DNA from: a virus
Lineage: Duplodnaviria > Heunggongvirae > Uroviricota > Caudoviricetes
Length of the DNA: 21,308 nt
Direction: 5' to 3' (one strand)
Virus record (IMG/VR): IMGVR_UViG_3300007747_000074
Coordinates: 1 to 21,308 of that record
This document shows, piece after piece, positions 702-19,767 of the stretch. The translations under genes were made by a program, and so were the position numbers. The notes beneath the pieces were generated by a model, which worked only from the letters and a program-made list of their open reading frames with translations, ran no database searches and was not told the origin of the DNA. The first letter of the stretch is position 1. Each line of letters begins with the position of its first letter.

Positions 702-838
702 ACAGCCTTGCTTTATGAATAAAACGCACCCCAGCAGCCAGTGCTACTGGGGACGGAGGTGTTGCTGGTAAAGTTAGGTATTGGATCAATGAGTGAGTCA
801 ACATAATATTAAACTCACAATTATAAATCAGCCATATA

Positions 839-2296: not shown

Positions 2297-2492
2297 ATCT
2301 AAATATTCTTTCAATTATAACCACCTTGCTGCAATATTATGATTATACTGTATAAAATTTAACTCCTCTTAGATCTTACTTCACTGTTCCTTATGAAACA
2401 ATCATCAAAATGAATCATATTGTAGTTAAGATTTTACTTTAAACACTGCTCGGTTATGTATTGCTGAGCACCTTCAAGTTGGGCCTGCATCA

Positions 2493-2795: not shown

Positions 2796-3268
2796 ACCTC
2801 AATCTCTCTGACCGTTCCGCCAGCTTCTTTGAATTTTGCAATCAGACTGTCAGCCTTATGCTCGAACTGACCATAACCAGCGCCCGGCAGTGAAGCCCAT
2901 ATATTGCTGCAACGGTCGATAGTCTGACGGATATCACCGCGATCAATCATCGGCAAAGCGCCACGCTCTTTAATCTGCTGCAGCGCTACAGCATCCTGAC
3001 TTTCTGGAGAAAAATCTTTCAGGCCAAGTTGCTTGCGGTAGGCATCCCACCAGCGTGAAAGAAGCTGGTAACGTCCAGCGGCTGTTGATTTGAGTTTCGG
3101 ATTTAGCGTGACAAGTTTGCGGGGGTGATCGGAGTAATCAGTGAACAGTTCGCCACCGACAATAACATCATAACCGTGATTTCTGGTTTTCTGCCGTCCG
3201 TTATCTGTTCCTTCTGACCATGCCACCATATCAAGGAAAGCTTTACGCTGGGAATTAAGTGTCTGCAT
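2792..3268 (-). CDS. Endolysin, lambda R-like lytic transglycosylase
   Basis: 158 aa, near-colinear with lambda R as I recall it (..[81 protein letters not shown]..), including the catalytic-glutamate SEGT context; immediately follows the holin. Confidence 0.85.
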
Positions 3269-3271
3269 TAA

Positions 3272-3622
3272 TTACTCCTTATGGGCACCGAACTTGTTAC
3301 CGATGACCCTCATTGCCGCACCACGAATAGCATCAACACCAATCAGCCCCACCCCACCACCAATGGCAACAGAAAGTGATTTAGGCCATCCGACATACTC
3401 AAGCGCGGATGCAAAGGTCAGCGTCAGAGCACCACAAAGCAGAATCTCAAGCGTTTTTCGTTTCCAGCCGCCGCCACCGCCAAAATAGGCAATGCGCAAA
3501 CCAGCCATAATAATTGACATAACCACTGCACCCAGCGGCGTATCTCCACGCCACCAACTTTGTAAGAGTTCCAGTAAGTCAGGCCAGGAATGAGGGGCAT
3601 TGTGCATTTTCATAAGCCTCAC
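3272..3622 (-). CDS. Holin (lambdoid S-like, possible dual start)
   Basis: 116-aa ORF with hydrophobic helices (AVVMSIIMAGLRIAYF; ILLCGALTLTFASALEYV; VAIGGGVGLIGV) and charged C-terminal tail; N-terminus MRLMKM offers closely spaced Met codons like the lambda S107/S105 dual-start motif; sits directly upstream of the endolysin. Confidence 0.65.
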   Translation of the reverse strand: MRLMKMHNAPHSWPDLLELLQSWWRGDTPLGAVVMSIIMAGLRIAYFGGGGGWKRKTLEILLCGALTLTFASALEYVGWPKSLSVAIGGGVGLIGVDAIRGAAMRVIGNKFGAHKE

Positions 3623-3710
3623 CTCCGAGAGTTCGGATGGTGCTAAGTGTAAGATTCAGGCTCTCAGGCTTGCTAACAAGAAGTCGAGGATGTTTCCAGA
3701 GCCTAACAAC

Positions 3711-3737
3711 GAAAAAGCCCCGGGACATGCCGGGGCC
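3711..3737 (-). terminator. Intrinsic terminator on the - strand, downstream of the moron gene
   Basis: GC stem gccccgg (3717-3723) / ccggggc (3730-3736) with 6-nt loop; on the - strand the stem is followed by TTTTTC (complement of 3711-3716); no T-run on the + strand side. Confidence 0.5.
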
Positions 3738-3830
3738 AGATGGAGTGCCAGATTAAGCTTCTGGCGGTATATACTCGTGTTTGATATCGTTAAATCGCCA
3801 AAAGTAACAATTCAAACAAAGAGGATTTTT

Positions 3831-3992
3831 ATGTCTGAAAAAAACAAACCACAAGGTGAAAATAAACCTCAGCAACCCGTGGCACCAAAACCAACTCCAA
3901 CACAAAGTACTACAGACTTTGCTACACGTCGTGTTTTTGTTGGAGATTCTGCCGACTCAGTCATTGAACATATAAAAAAACAGCCGAGATAA
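3831..3992 (+). CDS. Hypothetical small Pro/Gln-rich protein (53 aa)
   Basis: ATG at 3831 preceded by agagga SD with about 7-nt spacing; translation MSEKNKPQGENKPQQPVAPKPTPTQSTTDFATRRVFVGDSADSVIEHIKKQPR; its 3' end overlaps the convergent moron CDS by 32 nt; low-complexity composition makes coding status uncertain. Confidence 0.25.
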   Translation: MSEKNKPQGENKPQQPVAPKPTPTQSTTDFATRRVFVGDSADSVIEHIKKQPR

Positions 3993-4530
3993 ACATCGCC
4001 GCTACCGGAGCAAGGATGGTATACATCCTTGCTTTATCGAGACTCGTGCGGATTTTCTCATTTTCCAACAGTAACTCTCTTGCTGTATCACTCAAGTCAA
4101 CAAGGCGATACCTTCGTATAAGCGGCAATAACTTATCAGGTCCTAAATATCCTGCATCAGCGAATATTTTAAAGCTCGAGGGCTCCATATCCTTATATTT
4201 TTCATGATATAGATGATCAGGAGGGGCATTGATCAGGCCCCTAACCTTCACAGATAAATCAGTACATACCAAGTAAATGGCGCACCATGTCCATAGTAAT
4301 GTAAATGTGGTAATTCCGGCGGTGAGAAAATCGAAATTAGTTTTCTGTGTCAGCAATAAAAAAGATGAACCAATTCCAACAATCTGAATGTTCAGAAGTT
4401 TGTATCCATTCTCAACATTGGTTTTGTTAGAAAGATGAATCTCTCGTATCGTCTCTTCCCCTTGTTTTTCAAGATAATCGACGAGCTCATCATCTACTCC
4501 TAAAAAATAATCTTTAGGTAGTTCTCTCAT
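3961..4530 (-). CDS. Hypothetical membrane protein, AT-rich moron between Q/tR' and holin
   Basis: 189-aa ORF with strong SD (tggaggtgag) before ATG at 4530; acidic N-terminal ~40 aa, then hydrophobic segments (LLNIQIVGIGSSFLLL; FDFLTAGITTFTLLWTWCAIYLVCT; C-terminal MYTILAPVAAMFISAVFLYVQ); AT-rich versus neighbours; no family recognised. Confidence 0.6.
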   Translation of the reverse strand: MRELPKDYFLGVDDELVDYLEKQGEETIREIHLSNKTNVENGYKLLNIQIVGIGSSFLLLTQKTNFDFLTAGITTFTLLWTWCAIYLVCTDLSVKVRGLINAPPDHLYHEKYKDMEPSSFKIFADAGYLGPDKLLPLIRRYRLVDLSDTARELLLENEKIRTSLDKARMYTILAPVAAMFISAVFLYVQ

Positions 4531-4635
4531 CTCACCTCCACATCCTGTACTGAAAACAATTTTACCAGAATGTCTCGATTCTAGGTATTCCGCCAGGAAT
4601 CGCGCTCCAGAAATGAAACATCAGGTTCACCAGTA

Positions 4636-4668
4636 CCAGAAACAACAAAACCCGCTCAATGGCGGGTT
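4636..4668 (-). terminator. Intrinsic terminator on the - strand, candidate tR' (target of Q antitermination)
   Basis: Stem cccgc (4651-4655) / gcggg (4662-4666), extendable by A-T pairs, loop tcaatg; on the - strand followed by TTTTGTTGTTTCT; lies about 85-115 nt downstream of the Q-like stop, the expected geometry for pR'-tR'. Confidence 0.45.
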
Positions 4669-4751
4669 CTGGTAAAGTTCATGCGCTTGGTTCGCCTCGC
4701 GATACAGCTTTGCGAAGCATACCGGAATTGAAGCAGTTTATGCGTAAAAAA

Positions 4752-5207
4752 TCAAGCTATTTTTTGAGCAAATGATTCTCGCATGGGAATATATAGGGCA
4801 TACTCAGCAACAGCCAACCAATTAGCAATTCGCTTTTCGCATGTGCTAAAACACCACTCAGGATGTGCATCATTTAGCAATTCAGCCATTTTGCGCTTAG
4901 TCATCCCCCGTCCTTCATACCGTTGCCGGAGGACACTAATCAATCCAGGATGCTCTGCCAGCACCTCACTTATGACTCGATCAATACATAACGCCTCTGC
5001 ATCAGTACAATGCGCCAGCCAGCTCTTTTGCTTGCCGTTGATCATCTCTCGCAAAAACGCTTCCAGCTCAGCTTTCTCTATTCCCGCTTTTTTCATTCTG
5101 CGCAGGGCTTCATTGATGGCTGTTTTCGTCAATTTTTTGGATGCCAACAACTGATTGAACATATTTCCTGACCTGCCACCGCCAATATACGACCAGCGCC
5201 CCCACAT
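4752..5207 (-). CDS. Putative late-gene antiterminator (Q-like), start uncertain
   Basis: ORF 4752-5414 (220 aa) overlaps the upstream YbcO-like CDS by 124 nt in another frame, so an internal start (Met70 at 5207, or Met85 at 5162) is more plausible; Cys-containing motifs (HCTDAEALC, EWCFSTCEK); assignment is mainly positional (last gene before tR'/lysis cassette). Confidence 0.4.
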   Translation of the reverse strand: MWGRWSYIGGGRSGNMFNQLLASKKLTKTAINEALRRMKKAGIEKAELEAFLREMINGKQKSWLAHCTDAEALCIDRVISEVLAEHPGLISVLRQRYEGRGMTKRKMAELLNDAHPEWCFSTCEKRIANWLAVAEYALYIPMRESFAQKIA

Positions 5208-5290
5208 ACGCAGTTTGCCCTGAATCCAGACACTTTCCAGCGTGGCGAGACGAAGGTGTTCTCCGCTTTTTCCTGTATTCGTTGGGTAAA

Positions 5291-5581
5291 TCACAAATAT
5301 CCCTCCTTTCTCCAGATTTCTTGTGTGCGAAAAACACCTTCTGCATGCATCAGGCGTAATTCTTCTTTGGTGTAATCGCTGGTTTTTACCCGCCCGTCGA
5401 TTAGATCGTGGCATGAGCTACAGGCAATCGCCGCCTGCATATCGTGTGGTTTTGTCGCTGTTCCGCACGTTCCCGCCAGTCGGTAATGCGCCAGCACAGA
5501 CGTTTCCGGATCGTGATTGCAGTAGCCAGGAATTCTGACGGTGCACATCTGCCCCCGCGCCGCTTTACGTAAATCCACCAT
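5291..5581 (-). CDS. YbcO-like (DUF1364) putative Zn-binding nuclease, nin region
   Basis: 96 aa; MVDLRKAARGQMCTVRIPGYCNHDPETSVLAHYRLAG.CGT.TKP..ACSSCHD resembles DLP12 YbcO as I recall it (same length, conserved Cys/His); start overlaps the upstream gene stop (TAATG). Confidence 0.7.
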   Translation of the reverse strand: MVDLRKAARGQMCTVRIPGYCNHDPETSVLAHYRLAGTCGTATKPHDMQAAIACSSCHDLIDGRVKTSDYTKEELRLMHAEGVFRTQEIWRKEGYL

Positions 5582-6180
5582 TACGCAAACTCCAGCAGCT
5601 GCGCGGTCACATTTTCGACTTGTTCCGGAGAGGAAAATTTACGGAACAGAATCCAGTTCCACAGCACATTCAGAACAGATTTATAAACCTGCTGAAACTC
5701 GGTTTCGTCCATATTCGCAAAAGCGATGGATTTCGCCCGACGCCCATGGCTACCATCAGGATAAAGATGCTCGGTGTAAAATCCGGCCTGAATGGTTACC
5801 CACTCGCGGAAAGCCTCAAACGACTTTAGCAATGCCGTATCCCGGGTTCTGCGTGTCGCAACTGTATTCAGATATTGCTCTGCGGCTTCGCTCAGAGCTG
5901 GCGTATGTTCCCGGCCTACTGATTCACATAGGTAATCAACGAATCCTGAAACCAGCTTTCGTTCGCGAGGCGTGATCGCCCCACCGACCGGAGTCCAGTA
6001 ATCGAATCCCAGTTGCAGGAGTTTGAAAAAACGCTTGTGGAATGCGTAGTTACGCACACGCTTAAAGTCTGCGTGTATCCACTCGCCTATTTTGATTTGA
6101 TGCAAAAAATCGCAACTCTCCGGCGTCGCCGGGAGAAGTAGTCCAGAAGAGGTTTGTTTGACCAGTTGTATATGCGCCAT
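5581..6180 (-). CDS. Phage nin-region protein (DUF1367-like), function unknown
   Basis: 199-aa ORF translationally coupled to the YbcO-like gene; family name recalled from lambdoid prophage nin regions, not verified. Confidence 0.55.
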   Translation of the reverse strand: MAHIQLVKQTSSGLLLPATPESCDFLHQIKIGEWIHADFKRVRNYAFHKRFFKLLQLGFDYWTPVGGAITPRERKLVSGFVDYLCESVGREHTPALSEAAEQYLNTVATRRTRDTALLKSFEAFREWVTIQAGFYTEHLYPDGSHGRRAKSIAFANMDETEFQQVYKSVLNVLWNWILFRKFSSPEQVENVTAQLLEFA

Positions 6181-6458
6181 TTCTCAATCTCTCGATGGCG
6201 CAGTGCAGCAGATGCCAGTTGTTCAGGCTGACGAATAAAGTATAAATAAACTGGCTATGGTGTAAAGCTCCACATAACATGAACAAACACTACATATCAA
6301 ATAGCTGATACAAGGATAGAAATACAACACTTATTATTAAAAACGATTAGATAAATTACATTTTAATGTTATGAAAAAGTTCTTTTTTATCATAACATTT
6401 CAACAAAAGCATTACAGATGCACATCCCGTCATCATCAATTATTTAAGGTGGTTAAAC

Positions 6459-6545
6459 ATGGAAAATAACAACTATGCACATCTCGCTCCTTTTTTATCC
6501 GTAATCCTTTTCGCTGGCTGTTTTATATGGGCATTATTTTTATAA
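6459..6545 (+). CDS. Candidate small hydrophobic peptide (28 aa)
   Basis: ATG at 6459 preceded by strong SD aaggtgg (6446-6452); hand translation MENNNYAHLAPFLSVILFAGCFIWALFL, stop TAA 6543-6545; single predicted TM helix; in an AT-rich non-coding island; upstream hairpin (6365-6399). Confidence 0.35.
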   Translation: MENNNYAHLAPFLSVILFAGCFIWALFL

Positions 6546-6992
6546 AGTAGCCGCATGATTAGTTTCTGGAATCATGTTTCCCACTCAAATCATTAACATT
6601 TGATAAGATATATCTAAAAGGATGCCTTTACATTATTTGATGCGTATATGATTTATTTATATGCACAGTAAAGGCATCCTGGAAATAATCAAGATTAATG
6701 ATATATTGCTTATCTCATCCCCCACTGTCTTTCACCCGGAAAACATTTATCGTTAAAAATATATCATAAGTAATTAAATTGAAATTTCAGAACACAACTA
6801 ATGCACACAATAAGATTCAGTAACAGTAATCTATGCGGACTATATCGAGATTTTTTAGTTAAACTTTAATAAGTTATTCCTAACACACAGAATGCACAAA
6901 CTAAAAGTAAAACAAATAGTTATACGAAAAACAACCATATTGATTCTATCTTCTCCTCTAATCAACATATCAATTATGTGTTTCATAACAGC

Positions 6993-7028
6993 TTGACATA
7001 ACCCTCAAAAAGGTGCATTTATAATGCA
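6993..7028 (+). promoter_or_regulatory. Candidate promoter with NsrR-like inverted repeat overlapping the -10, upstream of the YeaR-like gene
   Basis: Perfect TTGACA (6993-6998) and TATAAT (7020-7025) but 21-bp spacer; inverted repeat TGCATT-tat-AATGCA (7014-7028) resembles the core of the NsrR site (ATGCATTT-N-AAATGCAT) as I recall it. Confidence 0.4.
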
Positions 7029-7047
7029 TGTTTTATGGGAGGTGGTT

Positions 7048-7389
7048 ATGACACACAAGAGAATTCCTAAAGACTGGGTAATCAAACGCTCAACTCCGTT
7101 CTTCACAAAAGAGAACGTACCTTCAGCGTTATTAACACATCATAATACAGCAGCAGGTGTTTTTGGACAGTTATGCGTGATGGAAGGTACTGTAACATAT
7201 TATGGTTTTGCTGATGAGAATGCTACTGAACCGGAGATAAAAGTAGTCATTAATGCTGGCGCTTTTGCAACAAGCCCACCACAATACTGGCACCGTGTTG
7301 AACTAAGCGATGATGCTCAGTTTAATATTAACTTTTGGGTAGCTCCAGACTTCTCAGGCGAAAAAGTCTATACCGCAAAAAAAGAATAG
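7048..7389 (+). CDS. YeaR-like DUF1971 protein (cargo gene)
   Basis: 113 aa from ATG 7048 (SD gggaggtgg at 7037-7045); RSTPFFTKENVPSALL...CVMEGTVTYYGFADENATEP...INAGAFATSPPQYWHRVE..DDAQFNINFWVAPDF parallels E. coli YeaR as I recall it; ORF first ATG is 7024. Confidence 0.7.
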   Translation: MTHKRIPKDWVIKRSTPFFTKENVPSALLTHHNTAAGVFGQLCVMEGTVTYYGFADENATEPEIKVVINAGAFATSPPQYWHRVELSDDAQFNINFWVAPDFSGEKVYTAKKE

Positions 7390-7471
7390 CCACGCTATAA
7401 ATATCTTATTAACTAGTCCCGGCGTGGTTCTTTCCCCGCTGGGTCTTTTACTCAGATTAGTAGTCTACGAA

Positions 7472-7579
7472 TCAGAGCCTCCGTCTGCCAGTTCGGATTC
7501 GTACCTCGCAGAGGTCTTTCCTCGTTACCAGTGCCGTCACTATGACGGTTAAACAGATGACGATCAGGGCGATTAACAT
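7472..7579 (-). pseudogene. hok-family toxin remnant (HokD/RelF-like), degenerate at both ends
   Basis: Hand translation from ATG (complement of 7577-7579): MLIALIVICLTVIVTALVTRKDLCEVRIRTG matches the HokD core, then diverges (GRRRL-stop); the +1 frame continues QTE... suggesting an indel; no HokD-type MKQQKA N-terminus (in-frame stop upstream). Confidence 0.5.
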
Positions 7580-8026
7580 CGTTAAACGTCTTGCAGGACG
7601 CGTAATGTTAACTGGGGCTTTTCTCTATCTACCTTTGGTGTTCATGCCCGAGGCAGATAGCCTCAAGCACCCACAGCAATTCTAACTATCCAATACATCA
7701 CTGCCAACACTTTAAACTCTTACCCTTTAAAACAAGAACAAAATTCAACCAATCAGCATTGGGCGTATACTCATATCCTAGAGAAAACAACTCTTTCTGT
7801 ACTATTTATATCCATATGATTTATAAGCATTTGCCACTTGCCATAGCCGCACAATGACAGTTTGCCATTTGATGTCAATAGATAAAAATGATCGTTTTCA
7901 ATGAGTTACATACTTGCAAGGCGTTGCACATCAGGCCCGATTACGTCAGTATCAAAAGATTACAGATGGTGCATTACTGCCACCTCGCCTTAATGTTCCA
8001 GAACTCTCCAACTTGAGGAATTTTCA

Positions 8027-8800
8027 ATGACATCCTTTCAATTATCTTTGATTTCTCGTGAAATTGACGGCGAAATAATACATTTACGTGCCAAAGATGG
8101 TTACATAAACGCCACATCAATGTGTAGAACTGCGGGCAAACTGCTCTCTGATTACACTAGACTCAAAACTACTCAAGAGTTTTTTGACGAATTATCACGC
8201 GATATGGGAATTCCCATATCGGAGTTAATTCAATCATTTAAAGGTGGAAGACCTGAAAACCAAGGGACATGGGTGCATCCTGACATCGCTATTAATCTAG
8301 CGCAGTGGCTATCGCCCAAATTTGCAGTCCAGGTTTCAAGATGGGTTCGTGAATGGATGTCAGGGGAAAGAACTACAGCAGAAATGCCTGTACATTTAAA
8401 ACGGTACATGGTTAATCGTAGTAGAATTCCTCACACGCACTTTTCTATTCTTAATGAACTGACATTCAACTTGGTTGCACCTCTTGAACAAGCAGGGTAC
8501 ACACTCCCAGAAAAAATGGTTCCTGACATTTCACAAGGAAGAGTATTTTCACAATGGTTAAGAGATAATAGAAACGTAGAACCCAAAACATTCCCTACCT
8601 ATGACCATGAATATCCCGATGGTCGCGTATACCCTGCAAGGCTGTACCCAAATGAATATTTAGCAGATTTCAAAGAACATTTTAACAATATTTGGTTGCC
8701 GCAATATGCCCCGAAATACTTCGCTGACCGGGACAAAAAGGCTCTCGCCTTGATTGAAAAAATTATGCTACCTAACCTCGATGGCAATGAACAGTTCTAA
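8027..8800 (+). CDS. KilA-N domain protein (antirepressor/Roi-like)
   Basis: 257-aa ORF, SD gagg about 9 nt upstream; N-terminal region (..INATSMCRTAGKLLSDYTRLKTTQEFFDEL..TWVHPDIAINLAQWLSPKFAVQVSRWV..) has the KilA-N/APSES-type signature; opposite strand to surrounding phage genes. Confidence 0.7.
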   Translation: MTSFQLSLISREIDGEIIHLRAKDGYINATSMCRTAGKLLSDYTRLKTTQEFFDELSRDMGIPISELIQSFKGGRPENQGTWVHPDIAINLAQWLSPKFAVQVSRWVREWMSGERTTAEMPVHLKRYMVNRSRIPHTHFSILNELTFNLVAPLEQAGYTLPEKMVPDISQGRVFSQWLRDNRNVEPKTFPTYDHEYPDGRVYPARLYPNEYLADFKEHFNNIWLPQYAPKYFADRDKKALALIEKIMLPNLDGNEQF

Positions 8801-8806
8801 ATGATT

Positions 8807-8832
8807 AGCCAGCCCCATAAGGGCTGGTTATT
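8807..8832 (+). terminator. Intrinsic terminator downstream of the KilA-N gene
   Basis: Stem ccagcc (8809-8814) / ggctgg (8821-8826), loop ccataa, followed by TTATTT (8827-8832). Confidence 0.4.
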
Positions 8833-8920
8833 TAGTATTATCAACCCCAGCGGCAAATCGAATACACCACCAGCGCCACCGCCATCGCAATTCCTACCGT
8901 TGTGAATGCTTCAGGCCAGG

Positions 8921-9424
8921 TCATCGTAAAACATCCTCCACGCTTATAAGTCCGCTTCGCTCCAGGTAGTCCATCACTTTATCCGGCAATTTGCAGCCCG
9001 GTTTCGGTTTCTTCAGTTGACTAACCAATTGTTTAACCAGCATTGTCAATTCGCGAACTTGTTTCCCGGGCTCCCCTTTGCCCTGAAGCAGGGCAGCGCG
9101 GCAAGCGTTCCATCCCTCAGCATATGTTTCAGTTACACCATCGAGATGGCATGTAAGCAAATCCATTTCTTCCGGCACTACGGGCGCTGGAAAAACGGCA
9201 TAGGGTGGCGTCCATTTTGGCGCTTTATCTCCAGCCGAACGCTGATACCAGTCATCCGGTTTGTATTCATAAAAATCACCAACTGGCTCTGCTTCCAGCG
9301 ATGCCAGAGCAATTTTGAATAATTCGCCCTCTACCCGTGCCATCCCTGAATTGGGGTGGCATTTCTCAATCGCTATTTTTAATTTAGCTTCTTCGATTAA
9401 TTGCTTTTTGGTTAATTCAGTCAT
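8921..9424 (-). CDS. Hypothetical phage protein (167 aa)
   Basis: Intact ORF on the same strand as the replication genes; no family recognised. Confidence 0.5.
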   Translation of the reverse strand: MTELTKKQLIEEAKLKIAIEKCHPNSGMARVEGELFKIALASLEAEPVGDFYEYKPDDWYQRSAGDKAPKWTPPYAVFPAPVVPEEMDLLTCHLDGVTETYAEGWNACRAALLQGKGEPGKQVRELTMLVKQLVSQLKKPKPGCKLPDKVMDYLERSGLISVEDVLR

Positions 9425-9585
9425 TTTTCATTACCGCCCTTTCGGGCCGCCTCCTAATATTTTGAGGGTGCAGCCCCCCCCTCCGGTTAAGGATTAAATT
9501 TTATTTACAGTGCTAAATTTAATTATTCAGATTTGGATTATGATTTCTCTTTCAGTTCACGCAGTTCCCTGATTGTTAATTTGGC

Positions 9586-10023
9586 TCACAACAGCACATC
9601 CTGAAAATTACCCTGATAGAACGCCAGTACACGCTGCATGACTTCGCTCTTCCGGCACTCGCGACAGATTATATTCAGACGCCTGTCATAGCGGCGTATT
9701 TCTCCGTCTGGTAATGACCAGATAAGGTCCGGATCAACTACAGCAGGTTTCTTCACCTTTGCCCTCGATAGTTTTTTGCGGGCGTTTTGCCAGTCTTTAC
9801 GCGCCTGCTCAGACGGGAATAATCCGTAGCCTGAATTGTAAACATCACCACTGGCGACCAGTTCTCTGGCGAGAGTGCTTATGTAATACCTTGATGCACC
9901 GGTTTTAGCCTCCAGAGCCCGTAACGTCTCGCGACCGCTCAGACGTACAAGTTCAACAACCTGCCCTTTAATTTTTTCCCGCTCTTCTGGTGTAAATACT
10001 TTTGCCATAGGTGCCTCCGGCAA
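9586..10023 (-). CDS. Hypothetical phage protein (145 aa)
   Basis: ORF abutting the upstream 224-aa gene (stop 10024-10026, start at 10023); possible HTH-like segment (GRETLRALEAKTGASRYYISTLAREL); no family recognised. Confidence 0.5.
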   Translation of the reverse strand: MPEAPMAKVFTPEEREKIKGQVVELVRLSGRETLRALEAKTGASRYYISTLARELVASGDVYNSGYGLFPSEQARKDWQNARKKLSRAKVKKPAVVDPDLIWSLPDGEIRRYDRRLNIICRECRKSEVMQRVLAFYQGNFQDVLL

Positions 10024-10698
10024 TCACTTTTCCGATGCAACATGGCGGGAAGAATCAGTAATCTGTCGTACAATATCCCTGTGCTTGTTCAGCTCCCGCA
10101 GCGCGGCGCAGACACGCTCCCACTTCTGGACATGATTTTTCGCCCGACGCAGTTCGCGGTTTGCCATATGCAGTGATGGTAAAACCAGGTCATCCGCTCG
10201 CGTTTCAGTAAACGATGGCAGCGACTGCACAATGTCCGCCACAGTTTCTGTTTTAATATCTTCCTGTGTTGCAGCCTCCTGTACTGGTAACGCAACACCT
10301 GCGGGCTGAGGAAAGGCCTTACCAGCAGTTTCCGCTACCGATGCTGCTTTCGGCTCTGCTGGTAAATTATCGCCCGGTATGCAGTAACGAAATTTACCGC
10401 CCTGATTTACGCGAAGCAGACGACCTTTGCTGATTGCCATTGCCAGCGTTGAAGCCACTTTGCGTGATGTGGTACCAAACAATGTAGCCAGCTCATCCGC
10501 CGTTTGTGGTCCACGTTGTTCAATCGTCGCAGTTAAATCGCTCTCTGAAATTTTCGCGACTGTTGCCGTGGTAGTTTCTTCCGGCAGTTCTGCCGGCGCT
10601 GGCTGTTCCTGCTGAACGTTGTTATCAGCCACACGCCAGGTGTACGCGCTTTTATCAACGAAACCAGCCTTTTTCAGTTCCCATAGTTCGTTCAGCAC
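10024..10698 (-). CDS. Hypothetical phage protein (224 aa) with possible winged-helix segment
   Basis: ORF downstream of the DnaC-like gene; segment [32 protein letters not shown] resembles a wHTH; acidic/Ala-Pro-rich low-complexity middle. Confidence 0.5.
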
Positions 10699-10784
10699 TT
10701 CTTCACGACTGATATCATGTGGCTTTTCCCATTGCTTTCAGTACGTCAAAAACAGTCTCCATTAAATTTTTCTCCCGGTAAAAA

Positions 10785-11531
10785 TTACTTCGCAATTCCT
10801 GGCTGGACGACATTCGGACGCCAGCTCTCCCAGTTGAAATTCACCCATCGCCCGCCGTTCATGGTCATGCGATCCATAATCCGCTCGCCAAGCAATGTTT
10901 TCATGGCCTCATAGTTCAGGTTTGTCAGCATCCCCACGCTGCGCATCGACGCTGTCCGGCGATCAACAATCTGGTGCAGTACCACCTGCTCGTTTTTCGT
11001 CTCGCGCTGAATGCCAATTTCATCAAGAACCAGCAGATCCACTTCGCACAGTTCCCGCAAAAATTTTTCGCCTGACTGCCCGTCGTCATAGCTGGCGTGC
11101 AGGGCACTCATAACATCAGCCACGGTAACCACAATCACTGTCTGACCGTCTTTCAGCAGGCGATTCCCGATAGCTGCCGCTAAGTGGTTCTTCCCGGTAC
11201 CAGGTTTTCCGCTGAACGCAAAATTTGTACACCCGGTCATCAGTTCATCAGCGATGGATTTCGCCTGACTCAACGCGTATCGCTGCCCTTCGTTCTGCAC
11301 CTGGTAATTCGAAAACGAGCATTTGCGGTGCAATGGCTGGATGCCAGAGTGATTCAGAATTTTTTCCACCCGCAACTGACGATTCTGACGGTTGATCTCC
11401 TCACAACGTTTCTGGCCTTCGGAAAGTTGCCACTCGCGCCACTCCGCTACCGTCTTGAATGGCGCGGTTACATGTGACGGGGCCAGTCTGCGGATACGTT
11501 CAAGAACGTCGCCTGTCGCAATATTTTTCAT
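10785..11531 (-). CDS. DnaC-like replicative helicase loader (YdaV-like AAA+ ATPase)
   Basis: 248 aa; Walker A FSGKPGTGKNHLA and Walker B-like LLVLDEIG; immediately downstream of the O-like initiator gene. Confidence 0.8.
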   Translation of the reverse strand: MKNIATGDVLERIRRLAPSHVTAPFKTVAEWREWQLSEGQKRCEEINRQNRQLRVEKILNHSGIQPLHRKCSFSNYQVQNEGQRYALSQAKSIADELMTGCTNFAFSGKPGTGKNHLAAAIGNRLLKDGQTVIVVTVADVMSALHASYDDGQSGEKFLRELCEVDLLVLDEIGIQRETKNEQVVLHQIVDRRTASMRSVGMLTNLNYEAMKTLLGERIMDRMTMNGGRWVNFNWESWRPNVVQPGIAK

Positions 11532-11537
11532 GGTCAG

Positions 11538-12326
11538 TTACCCCCTGAAGCCTGGCGGGATCGCACTATCCGGTAACGAGACGGTGTTAACCTGTCGGAG
11601 TAACGTCTCAGGTCGAACACCTTTCGGCGCGAACAAGCCCTGGTATTCGTTGGCGATGCTGTGTCGAATCACCTGCTCAGGTGAAAAACCCTGCTGGCGG
11701 AATTTTTCCAGCTCCCGTATCGCCCCGTTAGCGCCCTGCTCCGTTCGAATCGGTTTTCGCAATGCCTGCCTGAACTGAACCCACTCATGCCAGAGTGTTT
11801 CCGGCAACCAGTCAGGCAGCTCGATAGCCTCCGGTTCGAATTTTTTAGACGCTCGTTTTTGGCGAGGGGGATTTAGGGGGAGATAAGTATTTATATCTTC
11901 CTCTTTCTCTTCCTCTGGTAACGCTTTTTGATCCGTTTTTGTAACGCTGGCAGCGTTACCTTTTCGTTTCAGTTCTCGTATTTTTGTTACTCTCTCGTTT
12001 GTAACCGCCCGTTTTTTAGAGCTTTTCCCGTTATGGCGCTCAAAGTTAGGAAGCGACAACACACCATTAGTTTCGACCAGCCATCCAACCTGAATTAACG
12101 CATCAGCAAAACCAGCCATAAAAGTGATGCGATCTATTGCACTTTTTGTAACGCCGCGAGCGTTACACTCTGCGTTACCGTCTATCATTTGTTGATCCGC
12201 CCATGCCCAGAAGCGAATGACTTTCCCTAATGCGGCATCTGGATCAATATTCAGAATCTCAGCAAGCCTGAATATTTCCGGCTTATCCGGCGTAATAACT
12301 TCGAGCTTTATCCAGTTTGAAGCCAT
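11538..12326 (-). CDS. Replication initiator, O-like (YdaU/DUF1376-like)
   Basis: 262-aa ORF upstream of the DnaC-like gene; N-terminal coding region carries palindromes GTAACGC-N5-GCGTTAC, as expected for an origin embedded in an initiator gene. Confidence 0.6.
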   Translation of the reverse strand: MASNWIKLEVITPDKPEIFRLAEILNIDPDAALGKVIRFWAWADQQMIDGNAECNARGVTKSAIDRITFMAGFADALIQVGWLVETNGVLSLPNFERHNGKSSKKRAVTNERVTKIRELKRKGNAASVTKTDQKALPEEEKEEDINTYLPLNPPRQKRASKKFEPEAIELPDWLPETLWHEWVQFRQALRKPIRTEQGANGAIRELEKFRQQGFSPEQVIRHSIANEYQGLFAPKGVRPETLLRQVNTVSLPDSAIPPGFRG

Positions 12327-12358
12327 TTGTTTTCACCTTGTAACGCTCGCAGCGTTAC
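11918..12358. repeat. Three 19-bp palindromes GTAACGC-N5-GCGTTAC plus half-sites (candidate ori or operator sites)
   Basis: Palindromes at 11941-11959 (gtaacgctggcagcgttac), 12148-12166 (gtaacgccgcgagcgttac), 12340-12358 (gtaacgctcgcagcgttac); half-sites gtaacgc at 11918-11924 and gcgttac at 12172-12178; two are preceded by a T-run. Confidence 0.6.
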
Positions 12359-12403
12359 ATTTAACTGATACCGAACAAAACAGTTCGGTACGATTAATTT
12401 CAA

Positions 12404-12826
12404 TCAATGCACTACGACAGAATCGCTAGGAGAACCGCCGCCGCTGAAATGTGCTTTACGGTAAACGGCCTGGACTGCATCATCATGCGCATCAATTGCC
12501 GTACTCAGTGCATCCTGTGCCGCCAGTAATGCACGGCGTTCCAGGGTATCGAAGATGCAGAGTCGGTGACGCAGCTCGCGAGGAAGAATTGCCAGAACCG
12601 CAGGGATCAGTTTCTGAATTTTTTCCCTTTGCGCATTCGTTTCACCTTTCAACCAACGATGATAGATATTCTGCTGATTGTTCCAGTCCTTGCCTGGTAC
12701 CAGGGGCAATTCGCCGCCCCCCTGGCGCAGATATTCTTCAGTAATTGCGTTAGCGACCCACGCCTGCCCTTTTTCGGCTGCCAGGGCTAACAACACTGAT
12801 TCGATGTGCTCATGCTTGATTTTCAT
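12404..12826 (-). CDS. YdaT-like protein (140 aa)
   Basis: ORF overlapping the upstream Cro-like gene stop by 4 nt (ATGA); same size and position as Rac YdaT; function not evident from sequence. Confidence 0.55.
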   Translation of the reverse strand: MKIKHEHIESVLLALAAEKGQAWVANAITEEYLRQGGGELPLVPGKDWNNQQNIYHRWLKGETNAQREKIQKLIPAVLAILPRELRHRLCIFDTLERRALLAAQDALSTAIDAHDDAVQAVYRKAHFSGGGSPSDSVVVH

Positions 12827-13077
12827 GAATCAACTCCCATCAGCTTTTTCGTAGTAGTTTTATTTCTGCCAATAGTTAAAATTGCATCGGCAGAAAATAA
12901 TCCGTTTGATGCATGAGCGATTTTTTCAGCGTAATTTGTTTCGCCGGTATATTCTGTGCGAGGCAATTTTCCGTTATCCATCCATTTGTAGATTGCTCTT
13001 TGGCTGACACCACAAACGTCGGCCACAACAGAAACGCGAACAGTTTTGATTACATCTTCAAGTGTTTTCTGGTTCAT
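12823..13077 (-). CDS. Cro-like HTH regulator (YdaS/DicC position)
   Basis: Start taken at internal Met (MNQKTLEDVIK...) with SD gaggg 5 nt upstream; HTH-like VADVCGVSQRAIYKWM; divergent from the repressor gene; ORF first ATG is at 13149. Confidence 0.55.
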   Translation of the reverse strand: MNQKTLEDVIKTVRVSVVADVCGVSQRAIYKWMDNGKLPRTEYTGETNYAEKIAHASNGLFSADAILTIGRNKTTTKKLMGVDS

Positions 13078-13085
13078 ATCACCCT

Positions 13086-13156
13086 CACAATGTGAACTTT
13101 GAGTACATGCTATAACAGAACTGACAGTACATTCAAGAGCGAATATCATTGAACTT
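13086..13156. promoter_or_regulatory. Divergent immunity-region operator/promoter (OR-like)
   Basis: Near-palindrome cacaatgtg (13086-13094); direct repeats gaactttgagtacat (13094-13108) and gaactgacagtacat (13118-13132); third gaactt at 13151-13156 abutting the repressor ATG. Confidence 0.45.
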
Positions 13157-13576
13157 ATGGTTCATGAAGATAAAGCGCGTAAAGAGTTCGCCAGTAGGCT
13201 TGCGCTAGCCTGTGAAAACGCTGGTTATGAACAACATGGAAGGCAGGCAGAAATTGCCCGTCGAATGAAATTAACACCAAAAGCGGTTAGCAAATGGTTT
13301 AATGGTGAAACAATTCCTCGCCGAGAGAAATTAAGGGAATTAGCAACACTCATTGGAACAACACCAACCTATCTTTTGGGAGAGGATACAGAAGAAAGTG
13401 GACAGATACGTTTCTATCAGGAGTTAAATCCAAGACAAAAAATCATCATTGACCTTCTGGACGAGCTCCCTGACAGTGAGACAGATGAACTTTTAAAAAC
13501 TCTTGAGGAGAAAAAACAGAAGTACAATGCAATTTACGAAGAGTTAGCACGAAAGAAAAAACAAAAAGCCTCTTAA
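13157..13576 (+). CDS. XRE-family HTH repressor, DicA/RacR-like (prophage immunity repressor)
   Basis: 139 aa; N-terminal HTH (RLALACENAGYEQHGRQAEIARRMKLTPKAVSKWFNGETIP) and C-terminal helical region (IIIDLLDELPDSETDELLKTLEEKK...) parallel DicA architecture as I recall it; in-frame stop 57 nt upstream rules out a longer N-terminus. Confidence 0.7.
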   Translation: MVHEDKARKEFASRLALACENAGYEQHGRQAEIARRMKLTPKAVSKWFNGETIPRREKLRELATLIGTTPTYLLGEDTEESGQIRFYQELNPRQKIIIDLLDELPDSETDELLKTLEEKKQKYNAIYEELARKKKQKAS

Positions 13577-13651
13577 ACCAGCATAAATCCGGTAGCGTCC
13601 CCCTCCGGGTTTGTGCTTCACTTTATCCCGTCTCATTTTTTTATACATAAA

Positions 13652-13695
13652 ATGTACTTAAAGTACTTTACAATGATGAACACAAAGTACATTAT
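13652..13695. promoter_or_regulatory. OL-like operator/promoter for the + strand early-left operon
   Basis: 13-bp palindrome gtacttaaagtac (13654-13666); repeat gaacacaaagtacat (13678-13692) matches the OR repeats 12/15; -35-like TTTACA (13667-13672) and -10-like CATTAT (13690-13695) with 17-bp spacer. Confidence 0.4.
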
Positions 13696-13863
13696 ATACC
13701 TACCAACCCACCCCGCCCCACAGAACGCCGGGCAATACTTCGAGTTACCAGGCAGTGGTCAGGGGTTAAGTAGCCAGCCCGAGGCGTATGAACATGACGG
13801 CGGGATTCAAATTTTGCAGTGCAGCAGTTAGTTCCGCCACCCGGCGTTAAGGGGATAGATAAG

Positions 13864-14649: not shown

Positions 14650-15090
14650 ATCAATAACTCTCAACTGTAAGGGTATTGAAATGTTAACACAAGCTCTCGC
14701 TGTAGGGGTATAGCCGAGACCACCGAAGCCCGGAGGTGGTGAAATAAAACCGGGCACAACACGAAGGCGCATTTCCGATATCCATAAAGAGTCGGTCTTG
14801 TCTGTTAAATTTAAATGGTGGGAGTGCGCCTCCGGTTGTAAATAACGACATTGCTGTGTGTAGTCCTGGCGGCATCATTTTTTTTCTTGAAGTTCGGCTG
14901 ATGTCCGCCCTTTTTAAAGTGAATTTTGTGATGCGGTGAATGCGGCTAAGCGCACGTGGCACAGTTAAAAGTCATGTTAGTCCTTATTGGTTTGGGTGGG
15001 AAAGCCGACTGTAATTGTTAACTGGTTGCAGTCACCTGGAGGCACCAGGCACCGCATCAACAAAGTTCATTTGTAAAAATGGAGATAATT

Positions 15091-15312: not shown

Positions 15313-15482
15313 TGACTAAGAAAATAAAATGTGCTTACCACCTTTGCAAAAAAGACGTTGAAGAAAGCAAAGCTATTGAAAGAATGCTTCACTTCATGCA
15401 CGGGATTTTATCAAAAGACGAACCGAGAAAATATTGCAGTGAAGCTTGTGCCGAAAAAGACCAGATGGCACATGAACTTTAA
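15312..15482 (+). CDS. ydaE: Small Cys-rich protein YdaE-like (56 aa)
   Basis: ATG overlaps the kilR stop (ATGA at 15310-15314); translation [56 protein letters not shown]. Confidence 0.6.
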   Translation: MTKKIKCAYHLCKKDVEESKAIERMLHFMHGILSKDEPRKYCSEACAEKDQMAHEL

Positions 15483-15556
15483 TTAATTGACTATTCGAAA
15501 CTGAATTTATGCCAGAAATGGCAGGTATTCGCTCAACCTTAATTAAGGAGAAAAAC

Positions 15557-15832
15557 ATGATTACCAATTATGAAGCCACTGTTGTAACTACCGATGACAT
15601 TGTTCACGAGGTGAATCTGGAAGGAAAGCGCATTGGCTACGTAATTAAAACAGAAAATAAAGAAACCCCATTCACTGTGGTTGATATCGATGGTCCATCA
15701 GGCAACGTAAAAACACTTGATGAAGGTGTCAAAAAAATGTGCCTGGTGCATATCGGAAAGAATCTGCCCACAGAAAAAAAAGCCGAATTTCTGGCAACTC
15801 TAATTGCAATGAAATTAAAAGGTGAAATCTGA
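15557..15832 (+). CDS. racC: RacC protein
   Basis: 91 aa from internal Met (MITNYEATVVTTDDIVHEVNLEGKRIGYVIKTENKETPFTVVDIDGPSGNVKTLDEG...); matches Rac RacC as I recall it; ORF first ATG is at 15509. Confidence 0.75.
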   Translation: MITNYEATVVTTDDIVHEVNLEGKRIGYVIKTENKETPFTVVDIDGPSGNVKTLDEGVKKMCLVHIGKNLPTEKKAEFLATLIAMKLKGEI

Positions 15833-15839
15833 AAGAAAT

Positions 15840-15860
15840 AGCCTGCGTATGACGCAGGCT
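15840..15860 (+). other. Perfect hairpin between racC and recE
   Basis: agcctgcg (15840-15847) / cgcaggct (15853-15860) with 5-nt loop; no T-run after it, so not a canonical intrinsic terminator. Confidence 0.3.
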
Positions 15861-15933
15861 ATGAACAGTGTGTATCCGGCAAGATCATTCACTGAACAAA
15901 ACGAATTTTAATCTGAGTTGAGGTTAAAAAACA

Positions 15934-18534
15934 ATGAGCACAAAACCACTCTTCCTGTTACGGAAAGCGAAAAAATCATCCGGTGAACCTGACGTCGTCC
16001 TGTGGGCAAGCAACGATTTTGAATCGACCTGTGCCACTCTGGACTACCTGATCGTTAAGTCAGGTAAAAAACTGAGCAGCTATTTTAAAGCTGTTGCCAC
16101 GAATTTTCCTGTCGTTAATGACCTGCCCGCTGAAGGTGAGATCGATTTTACCTGGAGTGAACGCTATCAACTCAGCAAAGACTCCATGACATGGGAACTA
16201 AAACCGGGAGCAGCACCAGACAACGCTCACTATCAAGGCAATACCAACGTCAACGGCGAAGACATGACTGAGATTGAGGAGAATATGCTACTCCCAATTT
16301 CTGGCCAGGAACTGCCCATTCGTTGGCTTGCTCAACACGGCAGCGAAAAACCGGTAACGCACGTTTCACGCGACGGACTCCAGGCATTACACATTGCTCG
16401 GGCTGAAGAACTACCGGCTGTTACTGCCCTGGCTGTTTCCCACAAAACCAGCCTGCTCGACCCGCTGGAAATTCGCGAACTCCACAAACTGGTTCGTGAC
16501 ACTGACAAAGTTTTCCCTAATCCTGGTAATTCAAACCTGGGACTGATAACTGCTTTTTTCGAAGCATACCTGAACGCTGACTACACCGATCGAGGACTGC
16601 TGACAAAAGAGTGGATGAAGGGTAATCGTGTTTCACACATCACTCGCACGGCTTCCGGTGCTAATGCTGGCGGCGGAAACCTCACCGATCGCGGCGAAGG
16701 TTTCGTACACGATCTGACGTCACTGGCGCGCGACGTAGCCACTGGCGTACTGGCCCGTTCAATGGATCTGGACATCTATAACCTTCATCCGGCACACGCT
16801 AAACGCATTGAGGAAATTATCGCTGAAAATAAACCGCCCTTTTCTGTTTTCCGCGACAAATTCATCACCATGCCTGGCGGGCTGGATTATTCCCGCGCCA
16901 TCGTGGTTGCGTCCGTAAAAGAAGCACCAATTGGGATCGAGGTCATCCCCGCGCACGTCACTGAATATCTGAACAAAGTACTGACTGAAACCGATCATGC
17001 CAACCCTGATCCGGAAATCGTGGATATTGCCTGCGGTCGCTCCTCTGCCCCGATGCCGCAGCGAGTAACAGAAGAAGGAAAACAGGATGATGAAGAAAAA
17101 CCGCAACCATCTGGAACAACGGCAGTTGAACAGGGAGAGGCTGAAACAATGGAACCGGACGCAACTGAACATCATCAGGACACGCAGCCGCTGGATGCTC
17201 AGTCACAGGTAAATTCTGTTGATGCGAAATATCAGGAACTGCGGGCAGAACTCCATGAAGCCCGGAAAAACATTCCATCAAAAAATCCTGTCGATGCCGA
17301 TAAATTGCTTGCTGCATCACGTGGTGAATTTGTTGACGGAATTAGCGACCCGAACGATCCGAAATGGGTAAAGGGGATCCAGACTCGCGATTGTGTGTAC
17401 CAGAACCAGCCAGAAACGGAAAAAACCAGCCCGGATATGAATCAACCTGAGCCAGTAGTGCAACAGGAACCGGAAATAGCCTGCAATGCCTGCGGCCAGA
17501 CTGGCGGGGATAACTGCCCTGACTGTGGTGCGGTGATGGGCGACGCAACATACCAGGAAACATTCGATGAAGAGAGTCAGGTTGAAGCTAAGGAAAATGA
17601 TCCGGAGGAAATGGAAGGCGCTGAACATCCGCACAATGAGAATGCTGGCAGCGATCCGCATCGCGATTGCAGTGATGAAACTGGCGAAGTCGCAGATCCC
17701 GTAATCGTAGAAGACATAGAGCCAGGTATTTATTACGGAATTTCGAATGAGAATTACCACGCGGGTCCCGGTGTCAGTAAGTCTCAGCTCGATGACATTG
17801 CTGATACTCCGGCACTGTATTTGTGGCGTAAAAATGCCCCCGTGGACACCACAAAGACAAAAACGCTCGATTTAGGAACCGCTTTCCACTGCCGGGTACT
17901 TGAGCCGGAAGAATTCAGTAACCGCTTTATCGTAGCACCTGAATTTAACCGCCGGACAAACTCCGGAAAAGAAGAAGAGAAAGCGTTTCTGAGGGAATGC
18001 GCAAGCACAGGAAAAACGGTTATCACTGCCGAAGAAGGCCGGAAAATTGAACTCATGTATCAGAGCGTTATGGCTTTGCCGCTGGGGCAATGGCTTGTTG
18101 AAAGCGCCGGACACGCTGAATCATCAATTTACTGGGAAGATCCTGAAACAGCAATTTTGTGTCGGTGCCGTCCGGACAAAATTATCCCTGAATTTCACTG
18201 GATCATGGACGTGAAAACTACGGCGGATATTCAACGATTCAAAACCGCTTATTACGACTACCGCTATCACGTTCAGGATGCATTCTACAGTGACGGTTAT
18301 GAAGCACAGTTTGGAGTGCAGCCAACTTTCGTTTTTCTGGTTGCCAGCACAACTATTGAATGCGGACGTTATCCGGTTGAAATTTTCATGATGGGCGAAG
18401 AAGCAAAACTGGCAGGTCAGCTGGAATATCACCGCAATCTGCGAACCCTGGCTGACTGCCTCAATACCGATGAATGGCCAGCTATTAAGACGTTATCACT
18501 GCCCCGCTGGGCTAAGGAATATGCAAATGACTAA
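15934..18534 (+). CDS. recE: Exodeoxyribonuclease VIII (RecE), full length
   Basis: 866-aa uninterrupted ORF with the large acidic/low-complexity N-terminal region and C-terminal nuclease domain, colinear with K-12 RecE as I recall it; gagg SD about 10 nt upstream. Confidence 0.95.
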
Positions 18535-19336
18535 GCAACCACCAATCGCAAAAGCCGATCTGCAAAAAACTCAGGGAAACCGTGCACCAGCAGCAATTAA
18601 AAATAACGACGTGATTAGTTTTATTAACCAGCCATCAATGAAAGAGCAACTGGCAGCAGCTCTTCCACGCCATATGACGGCTGAACGTATGATCCGTATC
18701 GCCACCACAGAAATTCGTAAAGTTCCGGCGTTAGGAAACTGTGACACTATGAGTTTTGTCAGTGCAATCGTACAGTGTTCACAGCTCGGACTTGAGCCCG
18801 GTAGCGCCCTCGGTCATGCATATTTACTGCCTTTTGGTAATAAAAACGAAAAGAGCGGTAAAAAAAACGTTCAGCTAATCATTGGCTATCGCGGCATGAT
18901 TGATCTGGCTCGCCGTTCAGGTCAAATCGCCAGCTTGTCAGCCCGTGTTGTCCGTGAAGGTGACGAGTTTAATTTCGAATTTGGCCTTGATGAAAAGTTA
19001 ATACACCGCCCAGGAGAAAACGAAGATGCCCCTGTTACCCACGTCTATGCTGTCGCAAGACTGAAAGACGGAGGTACTCAGTTTGAAGTTATGACGCGCA
19101 AACAGATTGAGCTGGTGCGCAGCCAGAGTAAAGCTGGTAATAACGGGCCGTGGGTAACTCACTGGGAAGAAATGGCAAAGAAAACGGCTATTCGTCGCCT
19201 GTTCAAATATCTGCCCGTATCAATTGAGATCCAGCGTGCAGTATCAATGGATGAAAAGGAACCACTGACAATCGATCCTGCAGATTCCTCTGTATTAACC
19301 GGGGAATACAGTGTAATCGATAATTCAGAGGAATAA
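18527..19336 (+). CDS. recT: Single-strand annealing recombinase RecT
   Basis: 269 aa from [35 protein letters not shown]...; ATG 18527 overlaps the recE stop (ATGACTAA); ORF-track N-terminal extension from 18470 lies inside recE and is discounted. Confidence 0.95.
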
Positions 19337-19391
19337 TTCAGCCTGGCGGTGTAATGCACCGCCAACTTGAAATATTTTTATGAGAAAAATT

Positions 19392-19541
19392 ATGAGATAT
19401 GACAATGTTAAACCATGTCCATTTTGTGGTTGTCCATCAGTAACGGTGAAAGCCATTTCAGGATATTACCGAGCGAAGTGTAACGGATGCGAATCCCGAA
19501 CCGGTTATGGTGGAAGTGAAAAAGAAGCACTCGAACGATGA
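19392..19541 (+). CDS. ralR: Restriction-alleviation protein RalR/Lar-like, apparently truncated (49 aa) by an in-frame TGA
   Basis: Hand translation MRYDNVKPCPFCGCPSVTVKAISGYYRAKCNGCESRTGYGGSEKEALER-stop (TGA 19539-19541); downstream in the same frame is NKRTTGNNNGGVHV-stop (to 19586), the C-terminus of the 64-aa protein as I recall it. Confidence 0.55.
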   Translation: MRYDNVKPCPFCGCPSVTVKAISGYYRAKCNGCESRTGYGGSEKEALER

Positions 19542-19578
19542 AATAAACGAACCACTGGAAATAATAATGGAGGTGTTC

Positions 19579-19767
19579 ATGTATAAAATTACCGCCACTA
19601 TTGAAAAGGAAGGTGGCACTCCTACTAACTGGACAAGATATTCAAAATCTAAACTAACGAAATCAGAATGCGAAAAAATGCTCTCAGGTAAAAAAGAAGC
19701 AGGCGTTTCCAGAGAGCAGAAAGTAAAACTGATAAATTTTAATTGCGAGAAACTTCAGTCCTCGTGA
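19579..19767 (+). CDS. ydaC: YdaC-like small protein
   Basis: MYKITATIEKEGGTPTNWTRYSKSKLTKSECEKMLSGKKEAGVSREQKVKLINFNCEKLQSS; alternative upstream starts at 19567 and 19507 exist in the ORF; position between ralR and xis. Confidence 0.5.
   Translation: MYKITATIEKEGGTPTNWTRYSKSKLTKSECEKMLSGKKEAGVSREQKVKLINFNCEKLQSS

Follow-up and report, generated by a model that had tools for sequence, protein, structure and literature searches.

The DNA analysed here (the window) comprises positions 1 to 21,308 of the IMG/VR virus record IMGVR_UViG_3300007747_000074, and it represents a Rac-type lambdoid prophage adjoining ttcA. The subject of the present study is its racC-recE-recT region (Table 1), in particular the short spacer between racC and recE, which contains a strong hairpin. 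We consider it fairly probable that this hairpin is the Rho-independent terminator of a short minus-strand RNA which is antisense to the racC-recE mRNA.

The recE-recT pair is the ordinary, intact and already known Rac cassette, as the expected domains are present and the differences from K-12 are few. Positions 15400-19600 show 100% identity with many E. coli chromosomes, for example that of strain 7/2. As compared to K-12 MG1655, recE differs by 17 nucleotides and 7 amino acids, recT by 13 nucleotides and 4 amino acids, and racC by a single nucleotide and a single amino acid. RecE displays the domains of its family, an N-terminal Exonuc_VIII domain (PF06630, residues 2-178, E 6e-98) and a C-terminal PD-(D/E)XK nuclease domain (the PDDEXK-like DUF3799, residues 615-850, E 4.9e-26), and its residues 605-866 match the solved RecE nuclease domain (PDB 3H4R, E 1e-176). 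The protein is identical to K-12 RecE at 859 of its 866 residues, and from this near-identity to the characterised enzyme a 5'-to-3' exonuclease activity on double-stranded DNA would be expected. RecT matches PF03837 (E 7e-57) and the RecT structure PDB 7UB2 (E 1e-14), and its gene, as is typical of the family, comes directly after the exonuclease gene and is translationally coupled to it. A sequence-only reading of this region had described both genes as full length with an overlapping stop and start, forming a complete recombineering-type module. Both statements hold: the recE reading frame is free of internal stops, the ATG of recT overlaps the recE stop TAA in ATGACTAA (18527-18534), and the module is complete as judged by the Pfam domains, the PDB matches and about 99% identity to K-12.

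The spacer hairpin and its strand

The spacer contains a perfect 11-bp stem, which reads ATAGCCTGCGT-ATG-ACGCAGGCTAT on the plus strand and AUAGCCUGCGU-CAU-ACGCAGGCUAU on the minus strand. No longer true hairpin (one with non-overlapping arms) occurs in the 21.3-kb window. On folding, the 116-nucleotide spacer gave z = -4.2, and none of 200 shuffled sequences folded as well. The sequence-only reading had placed an 8-bp hairpin at 15840-15860 between racC and recE; the hairpin is indeed there, but those 8 bp are only the core of the 11-bp stem at 15838-15862.

The two strands differ in what comes after the stem. A T-run, TTTCTTTCA, adjoins it on the minus strand and extends into the complement of the racC stop codon; the stop TGA (15830-15832) accordingly sits in an A-run complementary to the U-tract of the antisense terminator. 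On the plus strand no U-tract follows the stem, and the sequence there is GAACAGTGTG, given also as GAACAGTG from the sequence read and as GAACAGUG from the terminator test. The terminator scan called the site on the minus strand only (11 pairs, 6 of them G-C, tail TTCTTTCAGA), where a G+C-rich stem-loop is followed by a U-rich tract as in an intrinsic terminator. Because the T-run lies on the opposite strand, the hairpin looks like an intrinsic terminator for transcription antisense to racC-recE.

Table 1. Features of the racC-recE-recT region; positions are those of the window
Feature	Position	Strand	Basis
racC, 91 amino acids	15557-15832	+	sequence and list of open reading frames; annotated in K-12
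U-rich terminator tail UUUCUUUC	15830-15837	-	terminator scan; mapped RNA 3' end at window position 15834
Putative antisense small RNA, about 64 nucleotides, 5' stem-loop then terminator hairpin	15834-15897	-	3' end from K-12; 5' end predicted
Terminator hairpin, 11 bp, 3-nucleotide loop, 6 G-C pairs	15838-15862	-	fold, terminator scan, conservation
Candidate -10 element TAAAAT	15905-15910	-	predicted; lies in the invariant block and aligns with Gifsy-2 TAGAAT
Invariant 41-nucleotide block AATTTTAATCTGAGTTGAGGTTAAAAAACAATGAGCAC	15905-15945		identical in 8/8 alleles
Weak A-U hairpin pairing across the recE Shine-Dalgarno sequence (predicted only)	15906-15929	+	fold
recE, exonuclease VIII, 866 amino acids, full length	15934-18534	+	list of open reading frames, Pfam, K-12 comparison, PDB match
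recT, single-strand annealing protein, 269 amino acids	18527-19336	+	Pfam, K-12 comparison, PDB match

An RNA 3' end at the hairpin in K-12

Term-seq data of MG1655 contain a 3' end at 1417486(+), classed as 'antisense' to racC (Adams et al. 2021, eLife, Supplementary file 1), with average read counts of 185,664 and 146,140. With the coordinate map used here (K-12 position = 1433320 - window position) this end falls at window position 15834 on the minus strand, within the U-tract, and the context printed with it, which ends in ...GGCTATTTCT, maps to the same position. The name racC appears three times in that file of three condition sheets (Adams et al. 2021), and the RNA 3' end lies inside the U-tract in at least two K-12 growth conditions. 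For scale, the plus strand of the LB 0.4 sheet gives 66,698 for SokC, 103,354 for the validated small RNA (sRNA) FtsO, which is internal to ftsI, and 6,222 for SgrS; the counts of the racC-antisense end exceed those of SokC and FtsO on the same strand. Thus, in K-12 an RNA 3' end has been mapped in vivo inside the U-tract. For the sense strand of racC or recE the Term-seq table gives no 3' end, which is uninformative because the early-left operon was repressed in those cultures.

Conservation between diverged alleles

The racC-recE spacers of diverged prophages of E. coli, Shigella and E. ruysiae were compared; since the sample is small and its sequences are related, the comparison is to be taken as supportive evidence and not as statistical proof. 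The spacers form two classes. Their centres (15863-15904) are almost unalignable between the classes, and both classes retain the stem. It was found that 92% of the cells of the stem are paired as compared to 14-43% for slid controls, and three pairs have changed on both sides. The loops vary (AAC, ACT, AGT, TGT) while the stems are unchanged. In class 2 the minus-strand T-run is stronger (TTTCTTTTTTT), the terminator tail is UUUCUUUUUUU, and an extra G·U pair lengthens the stem in the minus-strand RNA only. One transition is present in both classes, in locus L005 of class 2 and locus L091 of class 1, having arisen independently; it leaves a U·G pair in the minus-strand RNA and a C·A mismatch in the plus-strand RNA.

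The 41 nucleotides that are invariant among the alleles span both the recE Shine-Dalgarno (SD) sequence (GAGG, 15920-15923) and the recE start codon, and their opposite strand carries the candidate promoter. This block is unchanged also in those alleles that have a different RecE N-terminal sequence.

A scan of IMG/VR with the RecE N-terminus returned near-identical loci only, and it serves for allele counts and not for deeper diversity. At one IMG/VR locus the hairpin loop is inverted (GCCTGCG-CCATA-CGCAGGC on the plus strand, 110 nucleotides upstream of recE), as would result from an inversion between the arms.

IsrB of Salmonella and the proposed antisense RNA

The same layout is found in Gifsy-2 (L019 in our comparison), in which the Rfam family isrB (RF01386) matches at 1180 to 1093 on the minus strand with 99.3 bits. 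This isrB sits between STM1010 and the recE homologue STM1009 ('sbcA'), and a minus-strand terminator comes directly after the STM1010 stop codon. STM1009 is 41% identical to RecE over the N-terminal half, and STM1010, the small gene upstream of it, is unrelated to racC. With the upstream genes unrelated and the RecE proteins 41% identical, the RNA goes with recE. Northern blots and primer extension have confirmed IsrB-1 and IsrB-2 as RNAs of 88 and 94 nucleotides; the genes that flank IsrB are sbcA/STM1010, with the strands arranged as '<- -> <-', and the RNA is induced by starvation and overlaps both neighbours as a cis-antisense RNA (Padalon-Brauch et al. 2008). Rfam describes isrB as an Hfq-binding RNA. 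In Gifsy-2 the hexamer TAGAAT is correctly spaced for the 5' end of the 94-nucleotide IsrB and lies 6 nucleotides past CCTCAA, which is complementary to the recE SD sequence. In the window the candidate -10 element TAAAAT lies 7 nucleotides beyond CCTCAA.

From the position of this -10 element and the mapped 5' ends of IsrB we infer a 5' end near 15897, and hence an RNA of about 64 nucleotides with a putative promoter of its own. An RNA of this extent would be complementary to the racC-recE spacer and not to the recE SD sequence. In each of the two E. coli classes the predicted structure is a stem-loop at the 5' end and then the terminator (z = -4.5 to -3.7), and the two-hairpin fold of the RNA of about 64 nucleotides has z = -4.5.

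The function would probably be a cis-antisense damping of recE. Transcription would start about 7 nucleotides downstream of TAAAAT, a conserved hexamer situated immediately past the complement of the recE ribosome-binding site. The RNA would be produced in the lysogen while the RacR-repressed early-left operon is off. It would act mainly in cis by pairing with the racC-recE junction of read-through mRNA, after which RNase III or RNase E could cleave or destabilise the duplex, in the manner of lambda OOP; in addition or instead, convergent transcription could interfere with the operon. By either route RecE and RecT would be lowered relative to RacC. Since an antisense RNA always complements its own locus, the almost complete divergence of the RNA body between the classes agrees with a cis target.

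Small open reading frames were also considered as products of this strand and rejected. Within the proposed RNA there is only a 9-codon frame, which lacks an SD sequence. A 23-codon frame antisense to the recE start (15908-15979, minus strand) has a weak SD sequence, lies upstream of the 5' end proposed for the RNA and is not kept in alleles with another recE N-terminus.

The proposed antisense RNA would belong to a familiar class, the cis-antisense sRNAs of prophages, and its 3' end is already public in the Term-seq table. In the K-12 RefSeq record it is unannotated, the noncoding RNAs of this arm being ralA and kilS only, and a search of the whole window with Rfam at gathering thresholds gave RalA only, so that the RNA is without a family in Rfam. 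Within the restricted coverage of our literature search, no paper was found that names an E. coli RNA at this site.

Weighing of the readings

Several observations weigh against the proposed antisense RNA. The 3' end was mapped in K-12, a strain other than the one that carried this prophage. With TTGTTT at 18-nucleotide spacing, the candidate promoter reaches 8/12 of the consensus, which is below the threshold of the scan, and it was left uncalled. The Cappable-seq supplement has no entry in the coordinate range of the 5' end, and racC is absent from the sRNA tables derived from RNA interaction by ligation and sequencing (RIL-seq; Bar 2021). A longer antisense transcript could also be processed to yield the RNA as its 3' fragment, and the 41-nucleotide block could be kept simply as the translation-initiation region of recE or as a junction of mosaic recombination. 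IsrB itself is without an assigned function (Padalon-Brauch et al. 2008). The isrB covariance model found no match in 15500-16300 at E <= 10 (its gathering score is 35 bits), leaving homology unsupported, and Rfam as a whole gave chance matches only in that interval at the same threshold (a Leptospira sRNA, a Phe leader and snoZ30). In the absence of an isrB match the E. coli RNA is to be regarded as an architectural analogue and not as a demonstrated member of the family. Finally, the Qin/DicB-type prophages of CFT073 (L021) and O157 (L022) have no comparable antisense terminator upstream of the related exonuclease, so the layout is not universal for recE-family genes. In these loci the related 'exonuclease' gene comes after dicB-ydfD, and DicF lies upstream.

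Another account is that the terminator serves as an insulator which stops spurious antisense transcription, arising in the AT-rich recE, from entering racC, kilR and the immunity region, the RNA being a stable but functionless by-product. It covers all that is directly observed, namely a minus-strand terminator and an RNA 3' end, and neither a target nor a phenotype is known, IsrB being likewise without an assigned function. On the other hand, read counts as high as these suggest a stable product made from a promoter of its own, a -10-like element stands at a fixed distance in the invariant block and aligns with that of Gifsy, a 5' stem-loop is predicted in both of the diverged classes, and Gifsy shows the same layout with a sequence unrelated to this one. 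We therefore regard a terminator without a regulatory RNA as rather unlikely.

It could also be asked if the RNA acts in trans, through Hfq or ProQ, on chromosomal mRNAs or on those of incoming phages, for instance in superinfection exclusion of Rac-type phages or in regulation of host genes. A precedent is STnc6030, an antisense RNA of the prophage BTP1 by which related phages are excluded; isrB is an Hfq binder according to Rfam, and the class-2 tail UUUCUUUUUUU would suit Hfq. The class-1 tail, however, is short and interrupted (UAUUUCU), racC is missing from the RIL-seq-based tables searched, and the RNA body is almost wholly different between the two E. coli classes, a pattern more in keeping with a cis target than with a conserved trans seed. 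A trans-acting sRNA is thus unlikely.

The sequence-only reading had taken the hairpin as a structure of the sense mRNA which contributes to polarity between racC and recE. recE is silent in wild-type K-12, and an attenuator or terminator exactly between racC and recE could help to silence it; the stem also forms in plus-strand RNA and is very stable there. This part of the reading found no support. No U-tract follows the plus-strand stem, the 3' end in K-12 is antisense, and the L005 and L091 variants, which keep pairing on the minus strand, place C·A mismatches in the plus-strand stem. It has further been reported, in qualitative statements, that racC, recE, recT, ralR, xisR and intR are derepressed together upon RacR depletion, and ydaC, which lies downstream of recET, is reported to go up more than 70-fold; this joint derepression argues against a strong block at the spacer, and RacR repression of the whole operon accounts for the silence in lysogens. 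Attenuation by the sense hairpin is consequently very improbable. The spacer may still hold an element that limits recE expression, acting through an antisense RNA rather than a sense hairpin.

Least probable of all, and to be given hardly any weight, is a longer antisense RNA from a promoter inside recE that would cover the recE ribosome-binding site and start codon and block translation as P22 sar does on ant: the 5' end is unmapped, the invariant block takes in the SD sequence and the ATG, and the 23-codon frame runs antisense to the recE start (15979 to 15908), but no promoter-like site was called on the minus strand in 15940-16300, alleles L004-L006 differ in the 5' coding sequence of recE and have the same block and terminator, and IsrB starts, by its mapped 5' ends, downstream of the SD complement. 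Taken together, the evidence inclines us towards a short, terminator-ended RNA antisense to the racC-recE junction.

Other features of the prophage

With respect to the prophage as a whole, positions 1-13700 of the window are mosaic relative to K-12 Rac. The matching chromosome carries lysis and terminase genes. The racC-recE region (window 15557-16300) is 100% identical to that of the induced phages vB_EcoS-666R9, -673R7 and -613R10 (about 38 kb), and 97% identical to that of Rac-SA53. The Rac-type prophage studied here may be inducible, unlike the K-12 remnant.

Spacers identical to that of K-12 were also seen in contigs (L014 and L016) of metagenome-assembled genomes named 'Candidatus Nanosynbacter' and 'Proteobacteria bacterium', and the record 'Actinobacillus phage vB_Apl-pPE4' (L020) has a Rac-like kil-racC-recE region with 92% identity. 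These public records of contigs and phage are probably due to contamination or to mislabelling of the host.

Two further hairpins touch the cassette. Directly after the recT stop there is a 7-bp G+C-rich hairpin, GGCGGTG-TAATG-CACCGCC (19345-19363, plus strand), which is conserved in K-12 and has no adjoining T-run on either strand. Inside recE a terminator-like hairpin (17835-17859, minus strand; tail TTTTTACG; 11 pairs with G-T allowed) may be there by chance.

Downstream of recT, ralR (19392-19541, plus strand) has a TGG to TGA change at codon 50, giving 49 amino acids as against 64 in K-12; the truncated gene keeps the RalR toxin label of the Prokaryotic Genome Annotation Pipeline (PGAP). 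The RalA antitoxin sRNA is intact (19585-19763, minus strand; Rfam 225 bits). The toxin may have been inactivated while the antitoxin was retained. A homologue of the K-12 sRNA KilS (b4833), identical at 97 of 98 nucleotides, lies upstream of kilR at 14818-14915 on the plus strand, and no Rfam family match was reported for it at gathering thresholds. In the replication-gene region a 9-bp perfect inverted repeat occurs in two copies with the same core, at 11941-11959 and 12339-12359, about 400 bp apart (arms GTAACGCTG/CAGCGTTAC and TGTAACGCT/AGCGTTACA). These repeats could be protein-binding sites.

Significance

Recombineering relies heavily on RecET, on which the classic account of sbcA suppression is also based. 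A recent report describes RecE and RacC as a trigger and blocker pair in retron defence, RacC as a blocker of the retron toxin RcaT and RecE as a trigger of retron toxin systems. Lowering of RecE and RecT relative to RacC would make biological sense because RecE triggers these toxin systems and RacC blocks them. An abundant opposite-strand RNA from a spacer of 101 nucleotides would be an unappreciated regulator of the RecE/RacC pair. It is evident in public K-12 Term-seq data and absent from the K-12 annotation. IsrB of Salmonella, an orphan sRNA, would also gain a functional context from it. Any construct or deletion reaching into the racC-recE spacer, rearrangements of the sbcA type among them, would remove the RNA or uncouple it. 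If the RNA is functionless, the finding reduces to a well-known cassette with a correctly re-assigned terminator.

A wider and still doubtful proposal, which we put forward tentatively, is that Rac- and Gifsy-type prophages share an antisense RNA upstream of recE, expressed in lysogeny and having the same layout with unrelated sequences. Such an RNA might set the ratio of RacC, as an anti-defence protein that blocks RcaT, to RecE, as a retron trigger, or silence the recombination module of superinfecting relatives, or it might do both. It would in that case be a control point of RecET, hitherto unrecognised, in E. coli K-12 itself.

Comparison with known systems

The nearest known system is the recE-recT cassette of K-12 Rac, which encodes exonuclease VIII and RecT, is the source of the sbcA-activated RecE pathway and is used in recombineering as RecET. 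The likeness amounts to about 99% nucleotide identity, and both the ATGACTAA overlap and the 101-nucleotide length of the racC-recE spacer are shared. Within the spacer one base differs, A15852 in the hairpin loop here being G in K-12, by which the stem has 11 bp here and 10 bp in K-12. The prophage in the window is moreover the more complete one, and it is mosaic to the right of racR.

With IsrB-1 and IsrB-2 of Gifsy-2 and Gifsy-1 the likeness is one of architecture. In both cases an sRNA lies opposite to the strand of the early-left operon, in the spacer between an upstream gene and a recE homologue, and in both an intrinsic terminator abuts the stop codon of the upstream gene, so that the location is the same. 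The 5' end is just short of the complement of the recE SD sequence, as mapped in IsrB and as inferred in E. coli, and a -10-like hexamer is at the same offset from CCTCAA (6 nucleotides in Gifsy-2, 7 in E. coli). The differences are in length, 88 and 94 nucleotides for IsrB as compared to a predicted length of about 64 in E. coli, and in the upstream gene, which is unrelated.

More distant parallels exist in lambda and P22. The OOP RNA of lambda is a 77-nucleotide antisense RNA to the 3' end of cII, which acts via RNase III cleavage, and the sar RNA of P22 is antisense to the arc-ant junction and blocks ant translation. Like these, the proposed E. coli RNA would be a short, terminator-ended antisense RNA of a lambdoid prophage placed over a gene junction of an early operon. 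It differs from them in lying in the recombination module and in having no sequence relation to either, and whereas sar covers a ribosome-binding site, the E. coli RNA, in the extent proposed here, would leave that of recE free.

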